This document shows positions 13,931 to 14,358 of a stretch of DNA of 64,000 nucleotides, piece by piece. Below the pieces are notes generated by a model that saw nothing but the letters and a program-made list of their open reading frames with translations, had not been told where the DNA came from and did no database searches. Position 1 is the stretch's first letter; every line of letters begins with the position of its first letter. The DNA lies in the IMG/VR virus record IMGVR_UViG_2880378312_000006. One strand, written 5' to 3'. Source of the DNA: a virus. Taxonomy: Duplodnaviria; Heunggongvirae; Uroviricota; Caudoviricetes. The position numbers were made by a program, and so were the translations under genes.

Positions 13931-14088
13931 TAGGATCACCCCACAGGCACCACATGTCATGCATGGATTAGGATTGAATGATAAATCGTAAAGAAAACTG
14001 CAACACCTCGCGTGTAGCACCTGGTTAGCGAACTTTCGAAAGTACGAGTATTGTATGATTTCCAGCAGTTATCAATTTTACGTATTAA

Positions 14089-14358
14089 TCAGTGAATCAA
14101 CAACTCGTCAGCAGACTCTCTTTGCTGTTGAATTTTTTGGAACGTGTATAGGGCAGAAATTTTTGTTTTGGGACATGGTTGGGACGCCGTAGTACATACG
14201 AACTCTGCCGAATAACGTATGATATTATTTTTTAATCTCTTGGAATACATTATAGAAACAGAATGCTCTTGGGCGATTTTTAGTGATTGTTTAAATAGCC
14301 CTGTCATGCAGTTAAAGTGGCGGGCATCCTCTTCAAGGATGGTGATCCTCAACCGCAC
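14089..14358 (-). CDS. Divergent DinI-family protein (89 aa)
   Basis: N-terminus MRLRITIL and C-terminus ...QQQRESADELLIH resemble DinI (MRIEVTI...ETWESADDWFV); 3' flank homologous to the flank of dinI at 62343-62549. Confidence 0.45.
   Translation of the reverse strand: MRLRITILEEDARHFNCMTGLFKQSLKIAQEHSVSIMYSKRLKNNIIRYSAEFVCTTASQPCPKTKISALYTFQKIQQQRESADELLIH

Follow-up and report, generated by a model that had tools for sequence, protein, structure and literature searches.

The window analysed here, the whole 64,000-nucleotide stretch of the viral record IMGVR_UViG_2880378312_000006, is E. coli O157:H7 DNA, and its positions 12000-16500 are 100% identical in many O157:H7 chromosomes. From the PGAP annotation of identical sequence and from lists of open reading frames, we found that it holds two lambdoid prophages in tandem arrangement. 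The right part of the first carries tail-fibre genes, nleA, IS elements, nleG, espM1 and an NleG-like gene; the second is a complete lambdoid prophage with a minus-strand integrase, three NleG-family genes, a DinI-like gene and a ydfJ′ end. By PGAP annotation, T3SS effector genes lie between the tail-fibre genes and the att end, the arrangement that marks an exchangeable effector locus. Beyond the effector genes of each prophage lies a stretch related to dinI and to a ~100-nt non-coding element, which we call site A in the first prophage (13943-14402) and site B in the second (Table 1).

Table 1. Features of the two prophage right ends, in order of their position in the window
Feature	Positions	Strand	Details
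Third partial copy of the end module	11356-11518	-	ykgJ-like 5′ fragment, leader and hairpin 1 only
NleG-like (DUF1076) effector gene, before site A	12845-13495	+	ORF list, PGAP
IS3-family remnant, truncating the left side of the module	13645-13942		PGAP pseudogene 13645-13889
ykgJ-like 5′ fragment and leader	13943-13999	-	part of ORF 13922-14020(-)
Degenerate element copy	14000-14088	-	hairpin 1 at 14000-14018, 10-nt loop deletion
89-codon ORF, a chimeric chance frame and not a gene	14089-14358	-	
dinI vestige, stop and last nine codons	14089-14118	-	ESADELLIH* against ESADEWFVH*
Deletion scar	14119-14131		13 bp for ~299 bp
Right (P) arm of a yecE-type attachment site	14132-14304		decayed integrase arm-type repeats
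Captured host yecE codons 1-32 (W to stop) and yecD end, putative fossil attR	14305-14402	-	
ompW-type att region	14403-14749	+	P arm, crossover near 14638-14659, phage-borne ompW 3′ copy
ompW 3′ copy (phage-borne), adjoining the integrase of the second prophage	14624-14749	+	PGAP OmpW fragment
Phage integrase, second prophage	14795-15925	-	ORF, PGAP
Three NleG-family (DUF1076) effector genes, before site B	60181-62181	+	PGAP
Intact element copy	62243-62335	-	1 difference from consensus
Hairpin 1 of the site-B element	62243-62274	-	
Invariant segment (hairpin 2) of the site-B element	62277-62321	-	
Tail of the site-B element	to 62335	-	GTTACTGATTTTAC
DinI-like gene, 80 aa	62343-62585	-	DINI2_ECO57 (Z2083/ECs2153); PGAP, Swiss-Prot
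Integrase arm-type repeat pair	62579-62595		GGGGCATATATGGGACA; contains the ATG of the 80-aa ORF (62583-62585)
ydfJ′, N-terminally truncated host gene, right junction of the second prophage	62717-64000	+	ORF list, PGAP

Prophage right ends at sites A and B

A sequence-only reading of the window had proposed that a DinI-family gene closes the effector block of each prophage and is followed by a homologous 3′ flank. The homology is real and beyond chance: 14022-14118 and 62276-62372 are 81.4% identical over 97 bp (E 1e-21), and a 36-nt pattern based on the flank has two occurrences in the window and none in 100 shuffles of it. The proposed downstream flank is part of this match, but the match also takes in the last 30 nt of dinI. 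The placement at the distal end of an effector block was borne out as well, site B coming after the three NleG/DUF1076 genes and site A likewise after an effector gene, the NleG-like gene annotated by PGAP. A third fragment, reported at 11461-11530, is indeed related, but it is larger than described and only partly the same module. It matches the ykgJ-type version of the module (related locus L004, 1949-2112) at 70.7% over 164 bp (E 8e-19), overlaps with site A over only 30 bp (87%) and with site B over only 37 bp (76%), and contains neither the invariant half of the element nor any dinI. This copy lies downstream of espM1 and, according to the annotation, ends near an IS630 remnant.

A BLAST search for distant matches, run with 13890-14640 against 5,426 E. 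coli genomes, located intact relatives of site A at the yecD/yecE integration site. In UPEC957C and an O111:NM strain, the element is followed by a minus-strand dinI of 82 aa, a pair of LexA boxes and integrase arm-type repeats, after which come a 5′ fragment of yecE and then yecD. Site A aligns with UPEC957C in two blocks, 14022-14118 with L002 3001-3097 at 85.6% identity and 14132-14402 with L002 3397-3676 at 74.7%, and its homology to the intact dinI (L002 3068-3316) stops at 14118. Between the two blocks, ~299 bp of the intact relatives are replaced by 13 bp, a gap that is measured against relatives only 75-86% identical and that possibly represents more than one event. The missing stretch holds dinI codons 1-72, the RBS and both LexA boxes (L002 3332 and 3360).

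The sequences on either side of this deletion are vestiges too. On the left, 13943-14117 shares 70.9% identity with a ykgJ-ecpE region of the K-12 type (L004 2001-2203), and ORF 13922-14020(-) contains NPCMTCGAC, to be compared with MSNLNPCMTCGACC at the start of YkgJ. The adjoining 13890-13942 is 87-88% identical to IS3 ends; a palindrome at 13881-13896, CTGTTTTGAAAAACAG, was considered as a LexA box and rejected, as it sits within the IS3 remnant. On the right, a repeat census places decayed arm-type repeats (TGGGACATGGTTGGGACG) at ~14169-14187. The captured host segment that follows is ~91% identical to the chromosomal yecD/yecE junction, and its yecE′ translates as MVYIVLPQ*SHPKWVRLRITILEEDARHFNC, with an in-frame stop, against MIYIGLPQWSHPKWVRLGITSLEEYARHFNC in YecE. 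The yecE gene is a known integration site of Stx phages. To the right of yecE′, the sequence is that of the attR of an ompW-resident prophage in O55:H7 DEC5A until ~14659, past which it diverges from DEC5A inside ompW and switches to a diverged, phage-borne ompW 3′ end. This junction beside the integrase is attP-like, and both prophages lie in tandem at ompW.

Site A is not a gene but a set of vestiges, left where the right end of an earlier layer of prophage has eroded. Read along the minus strand, it runs from the yecE′ of an old attR through the arm repeats, the 299-bp scar, the last nine codons of dinI and the element to the first codons of a ykgJ-like gene that is cut by the IS3 remnant. 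Its history may have begun with residence at yecE, which would have left yecE′ behind as a fossil attR, and may have continued with imprecise excision or recombination between prophages, followed by the gain of an ompW-type int/att module. At site B, which lies at a ydfJ-type attR, the same backbone module is better preserved.

Both sites derive from an end module with the order att arm, SOS boxes, dinI and non-coding element. The common right end of lambdoid phages of E. coli comprises tail-fibre genes, a cargo insertion point, the ~100-nt element, dinI on the opposite strand, SOS boxes and an att arm, and sites A and B resemble each other because these phages share this conserved end module. 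The earlier proposal that one terminal module has been reused is upheld in this form, with both sites descending from the lambdoid end module and effector cargo inserted between it and the tail-fibre genes.

The ~100-nt element and its neighbours

We examined ~130 phage and prophage copies of the element, taken from IMG/VR and from genomes. The element consists of a hairpin (hairpin 1), a 45-nt segment that can form a second one (hairpin 2) and a short tail, and its variable parts are hairpin 1, the loop of hairpin 1 and both flanks. The 45-nt segment, whose counterpart at site A is 14023-14081, is near-invariant over more than 70 distinct copies, an invariance that comes partly from ascertainment, as copies were gathered with an exact 22-mer from within the segment; it displays no covariation. 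In contrast to this near-invariant segment, hairpin 1 varies in a paired manner. Its stem has 10 bp, double-sided changes fall in 7 of the 10 pairs (42 cells), none of 500 shuffles reached the observed values, and the signal collapses in slid controls.

In 46 of the 71 distinct copies, adenine fills at least five of the eight positions 5′ of the stem, which amounts to a U-tract on the minus (dinI) strand, against none of the 71 copies when the plus strand was tested. At site B the U-tract is only UUUUACAU. The pairing of hairpin 1 leaves the strand ambiguous, with 23 G:U against 35 A:C pairs and with per-strand folding energies that divide 36 against 29 sequences, and an attempt to assign the transcribed strand from these two measures was dropped. 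Folded as a whole, the element reaches -33.5 kcal/mol on the plus and -23.9 kcal/mol on the minus strand.

The element does not appear to code for protein. Six-frame translation of 8 copies gave no conserved ORF on either strand. A small protein of the Gifsy antirepressor type was considered and rejected, given the lack of a start in the conserved frames, a stop in HK633 and 1-nt indels. Likewise, the 44-aa 'hypothetical protein' that PGAP places on the plus strand at 62212-62346 was discounted because copies differ by 1-nt indels and the few sites that vary do so non-synonymously.

The neighbours of the element follow a pattern. A full-length dinI on the minus strand stands at a fixed distance of +47 in ~60 of the ~130 copies, an HK633-type (IntS-type) int at +111 to +122 in 7, and the int or sib of HK97 beside the element in a few. 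To the left, the end of Tfa lies 81-86 or ~194-229 nt away in ~35 copies, and the rest have cargo or nothing recognisable there. In copies with identifiable neighbours, the usual place of the element is the meeting point of late or cargo genes that run rightward and a gene that runs leftward, be it dinI, int or sib.

A search for related loci with one DinI protein returned only genes 99-100% identical to it, and phage BLAST was used instead for the comparison of dinI with the element. The element accompanies dinI in mEp460 and in many Stx phages. Others carry it with no dinI: HK97, where it is flanked by tfa and sib, HK633, whose record marks it as an attP, phi80 and lambda hybrids. It is missing beside more divergent dinI genes, and homology to them starts exactly at the dinI stop codon; the element is therefore a separate mosaic module, with sharp mosaic joints at both of its edges. 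Cargo is inserted to the left of the element, the effector cassettes lying upstream of it, which is why each of the two effector blocks ends distally in element and dinI. A scan of genome contigs for the element gave five matches, of which four came from E. coli or Shigella and the fifth from a 401-bp contig labelled Lysobacter, and added no diversity beyond these. K-12 has two copies of the element, in the ykgJ-ecpE spacer and at the end of Qin.

These data suggest that the element most likely terminates or insulates transcription that runs leftward from dinI, int or pL and converges on late or cargo genes. Hairpin 1 and its minus-strand U-tract would stop such transcription. Termination leaves the near-invariance of the 45-nt segment unexplained, however, and other points speak against it: besides the ambiguous wobble counts and the better fold of the whole element on the plus strand, hairpin 1 has a large loop of 13 nt, and a generic terminator scan, for which the loop exceeds 8 nt, called it at neither site.

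A different function, as a self-standing RNA gene or element selected independently of dinI, would account for several of these features, and we regard it as possible though rather unlikely. It could be a small RNA of the dinI-3′UTR type or akin to CssrB, or a processing or retroregulatory site like sib. Equally tentative is the idea of an undescribed functional RNA module, whether sRNA, retroregulatory site or 'super-terminator', placed where leftward SOS or int transcription meets late and cargo genes. An RNA function would explain why the element has survived at site A, in the region upstream of ykgJ and at the Qin end of K-12, why three separate erosions of dinI have spared it and why phages such as HK97, HK633, phi80 and the lambda hybrids carry it without dinI. 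An invariant 45-nt stretch followed by a covarying terminator hairpin also resembles the build of Hfq-type sRNAs, and the last ~40 nt of the Rfam model for CssrB (RF02799, Shigella chromosomal sRNA B) correspond to the left flank of the element plus hairpin 1. Yet the CssrB scores, 25.2 bits in the window and 44.1 and 32.6 bits at related loci, stay below the gathering score of 76 bits, and the CssrB strand is opposite to that of the U-tract; none of the papers searched mentions CssrB as an RNA. Further points against this function are that the invariance is in part a product of the exact 22-mer collection, that the site-A copy is itself decaying (over 62 columns it departs from the consensus 10 times, where the median copy does so twice), and that the element was found only in Escherichia and Shigella genomes apart from the one short contig labelled Lysobacter.

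Among the Hfq-CRAC peaks listed in Table S2 of Tree et al. 2014, none falls at the right end of Sp9 or of Sp10, as judged from prophage labels and approximate positions; reads from repeats were possibly lost in mapping, and the window's second prophage matches ECs2153, which presumably lies in Sp11. Two Hfq-CRAC peaks at the right end of Sp5 are unrelated, because that end lacks the element. A preprint on Pas-sRNA, considered as evidence for an sRNA, concerns other loci. If the 45-nt segment were a functional RNA, a widely distributed phage regulatory element would be added to those described. On this RNA reading, the copies of the ~100-nt element upstream of ykgJ and at the Qin end of K-12 would be fossils of it in the core genome.

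It is improbable that the element acts instead as DNA, either as an attP/attB recombination site of the HK633 (IntS-like) type or as a homology 'linker' for the swapping of end modules, in which case recombination and not RNA function would account for its conservation. The depositors of HK633 annotate an attP here, but they do so from its match to the K-12 ykgJ-yagV spacer, that is, from homology only. Similarly, the IntS-type integrase close to the element in 7 copies is offset by the majority, which lie beside dinI or beside unrelated integrases with att cores elsewhere: the att core of HK97 is 188 bp away, and the yecE, ydfJ and ompW junctions are further to the right. The sharp mosaic joints on either side of the element would suit a linker, whereas the compensatory changes in hairpin 1 indicate a folded nucleic acid and not a simple patch of homology.

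dinI sequences at the two sites

The site-B protein is identical to Swiss-Prot DINI2_ECO57 and matches the Pfam DinI family (PF06183) with 64.9 bits (cut-off 24.2; E 8e-18) over model positions 1-63 of 63. The sequence-only reading, which had called it a canonical 68-aa DinI at 62343-62549, was right about the family and wrong about the extent, since the gene has 80 codons and the Pfam-matched part alone covers 62346-62549. The alignment with E. coli DinI (1GHH) covers only residues 7-79 of the site-B protein (E 3e-9) and includes the acidic C-terminal helix. In DinI, the C-terminal helix contacts RecA. By this alignment, the site-B gene appears to retain an intact RecA-binding C-terminal half.

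The other end of the gene is eroded. DNA homology to the intact 82-aa prophage dinI ends at about codon 10, and within 62341-62720 we found no CTG-N10-CAG and no CTGT-N8-ACAG; upstream of the gene there is also no sigma-70-like site on the minus strand. Related loci have LexA boxes at this place, two each in L002 and L003 and one annotated in VT1-Sakai. A deletion has fused codon ~7 to the arm repeat, which now supplies the ATG, and has removed the SOS-box promoter together with the native start. The K-12 Qin end at ydfJ has the same arm-repeat junction as site B, plus an additional internal deletion of ~200 bp in dinI. With the SOS-box promoter and native start gone, expression of the site-B gene is doubtful, and the gene may well be silent.

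The 89-codon ORF at site A had been taken for a divergent 89-aa DinI-like gene. Only its last nine codons are homologous to dinI, and they are so at the level of DNA; the ORF joins the tail of dinI to the att arm and to yecE′, the latter in its own yecE frame. A Pfam search at E<=10 did not match it to the DinI family (PF06183), and BLASTP against the site-B protein gave nothing better than E 3.0. Its exact sequence is absent from a collection of ~15 billion predicted proteins although at least 470 complete genomes contain the DNA, and the RefSeq annotation of O157 has no CDS at these positions. A single-sequence AF2 model is of low confidence (pLDDT 61, pTM 0.47), and a Foldseek search of the PDB with this low-confidence model gave no match at E<=0.001, with 1GHH and 7YWA absent among the 50 matches listed. 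The frame exists because no stop codon occurs between the yecE′ fragment and the dinI stop. A DinI-like gene at this position is thereby refuted, there being neither a recognisable DinI fold nor conservation as a protein: the ORF is a chance frame over a decayed prophage end and should not be annotated.

We consider it wholly implausible that site A nevertheless encodes a divergent but working DinI-like protein that would join the site-B DinI in modulating RecA and the SOS response and hence prophage induction: the ORF ends in ESADELLIH* where DinI has ESADEWFV and is placed relative to the flank as dinI is at site B, but beyond nine codons it is att arm and yecE, it has never been called as a protein, its model gives neither a confident fold nor a DinI fold match, and its LexA boxes and RBS are deleted. 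The broader suggestion that prophage DinI tunes the SOS response and induction finds no support in the window, site A being geneless and site B lacking LexA boxes and the native start. In the Gifsy prophages, non-polar dinI deletions caused no significant change in induction (PMC3121763), and the proposed induction link is therefore unsupported in the window on that ground as well.

Taken jointly, the best explanation, which we hold with a probability of roughly 85%, is that site A is a set of vestiges, that site B is an eroded DinI-like gene, that both belong to a shared end module and that the element between dinI and the cargo genes most likely acts as a leftward terminator or insulator. 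As a gene finding this carries small weight, since the DinI-like genes of O157 prophages are already catalogued and the second 'copy' is a pseudo-ORF. Site A is of more use as a record of prophage history, with a putative fossil attR and 98 bp of yecE inside a prophage that resides at ompW, and it suggests that effector-carrying right ends pass between prophages with different integration sites. The boundary formed by the element and dinI offers a practical landmark that delimits the zones of effector (moron) insertion in lambdoid prophages.

Comparison with known systems

The site-B gene is like DINI2_ECO57 and E. coli DinI (1GHH) over the whole Pfam model and over DinI residues 7-79. It differs from E. 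coli DinI in its first six residues, which are MPHRYP in place of MRIEVT, a segment that forms the first beta-strand of DinI in 1GHH. It also differs in lacking an upstream LexA box or promoter-like site, and site A keeps nine codons only.

The end module as such is already known, as it is annotated in VT1-Sakai, and our finding is to that extent mostly ordinary. In VT1-Sakai/Sp15 (AP000400), the annotated order is att site, promoter, SOS box, the dinI gene H0001, H0002 ('similar to YkgJ') and tail fibre. Gene order and orientation are as in the module of the window, of which site A retains the beginning of ykgJ′, the element and the tail of dinI; the spacer between dinI and ykgJ′ in VT1-Sakai corresponds to the element by position. 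In the window, unlike in VT1-Sakai, the module is separated from the tail-fibre genes by effector genes and IS remnants; site A has also lost dinI and the SOS box, and site B lacks ykgJ′.

The Gifsy prophages of Salmonella carry a LexA-controlled operon of dinI, antirepressor and irsA genes (Lemire et al. 2011, PMC3121763). The likeness lies in a dinI that comes first in an SOS-box-controlled unit near the prophage end and is followed by genes on the same strand (PMC3121763), and in the two LexA boxes that precede dinI in the intact E. coli relatives. Unlike the Gifsy operon, the E. coli element contains no antirepressor ORF. No paper was found that links irsA to YkgJ, and the E. coli phage records include no intact ykgJ-like gene.

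Two Rfam families touch the same region. IS009 (RF02111) matches the 3′ ends of tfa and the yagU-ykgJ spacer, and CssrB shares the left flank and hairpin 1 as set out above. CssrB is a plus-strand family, and neither of the two covers the invariant segment of the element. Both families appear to derive from this prophage end region, and the boundary of element and dinI explains the phage-like look of IS009, in part that of CssrB, and that of the K-12 ykgJ neighbourhood.

In gene content, the window resembles the exchangeable effector loci of lambdoid prophages, reportedly described by Tobe et al. in 2006. As in those loci, genes of the NleG family, EspM1 and NleA lie downstream of the tail-fibre genes at the right end of a prophage. 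Beyond that description, the two loci of the window place this cargo upstream of a fixed boundary made of the element and dinI, and one of them encloses what would be a fossil attR, the yecE′ of an earlier integration site.

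Prophage junctions and a fossil yecE attachment site

The boundary between the two prophages has the layout of an attP, with the P arm and core followed by a phage-borne ompW 3′ copy that adjoins the integrase gene, and we therefore read it as tandem integration at ompW. Despite this, the right terminus of the second prophage is the truncated host gene ydfJ′ (62717-64000), implying either that this prophage is a hybrid or that the chromosome has been rearranged. The 12000-16500 junction occurs in only 80 of the 5,426 complete E. coli genomes.

The host yecD/yecE piece, which is enclosed by the prophage now at ompW, is a fossil attR, and the effector-bearing right end was thus formerly part of a yecE-integrated phage. 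One integrase arm-type repeat, TGGGGCAT-N3/4-TGGGRCA, recurs at att sites of the yecE, ydfJ and wrbA types, in the right arm of each, and each of three independent erosions of dinI ends 10-20 nt from the first such repeat. Separately, a perfect CTGT-N8-ACAG palindrome, CTGTTTTGAAAAACAG, at 13881-13896 resembles a LexA box but lies inside an IS3 remnant.

Features in the window and in related loci (L numbers; L002, the UPEC957C locus at yecE)
Feature	Coordinates	Strand	Remarks
ykgJ-like 5′ fragments	13943-13999; 11356-11445		Beside the element
Arm-type repeat	62579-62595; 14169-14187; L002 3404-3462; L014 2633-2650; L138 (Sakai Sp5 right end)
Host yecD/yecE junction piece	14305-14402		98 bp; yecE codons 1-32, one stop
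attP-like prophage-prophage junction	14380-15925
DicF	19301-19352	-	Second prophage; Rfam/ARAGORN matches
sok (hok/sok antitoxin RNA)	26562-26736	+	As DicF
tRNA-Met; tRNA-Arg	31030-31105; 31206-31282	+	As DicF
STnc100	32052-32224	+	As DicF
WP_001480712.1, 44-aa hypothetical protein	62212-62346	+	RefSeq call overlying the element

The ykgJ neighbourhood

In K-12-type genomes (L004 1468-2203), the core gene ykgJ is flanked by a tail-fibre-assembly remnant, which accounts for the Rfam ‘IS009’ match in this region, and by the element, the conserved non-coding piece beside dinI, together with a dinI 3′ vestige. With these flanking sequences, the ykgJ neighbourhood resembles an ancient prophage end.

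Annotations overlying the element

Single-nucleotide indels among copies of the element and a start that is not conserved suggest that the protein call over it is spurious. Rfam CssrB, a Shigella sRNA, gave sub-threshold matches at 62135-62273 (+) and at L007 4583-4678; the final ~40 nt of the model correspond to hairpin 1 together with the left flank of the element. The strand concerned is opposite to the dinI strand, on which a U-rich tract follows this hairpin. In the record of phage HK633 (L011 2504-2584), the depositors labelled the element attP on the basis of its match to the K-12 ykgJ-yagV spacer; if that label is true, any resident copy of the element could receive HK633-type phages.
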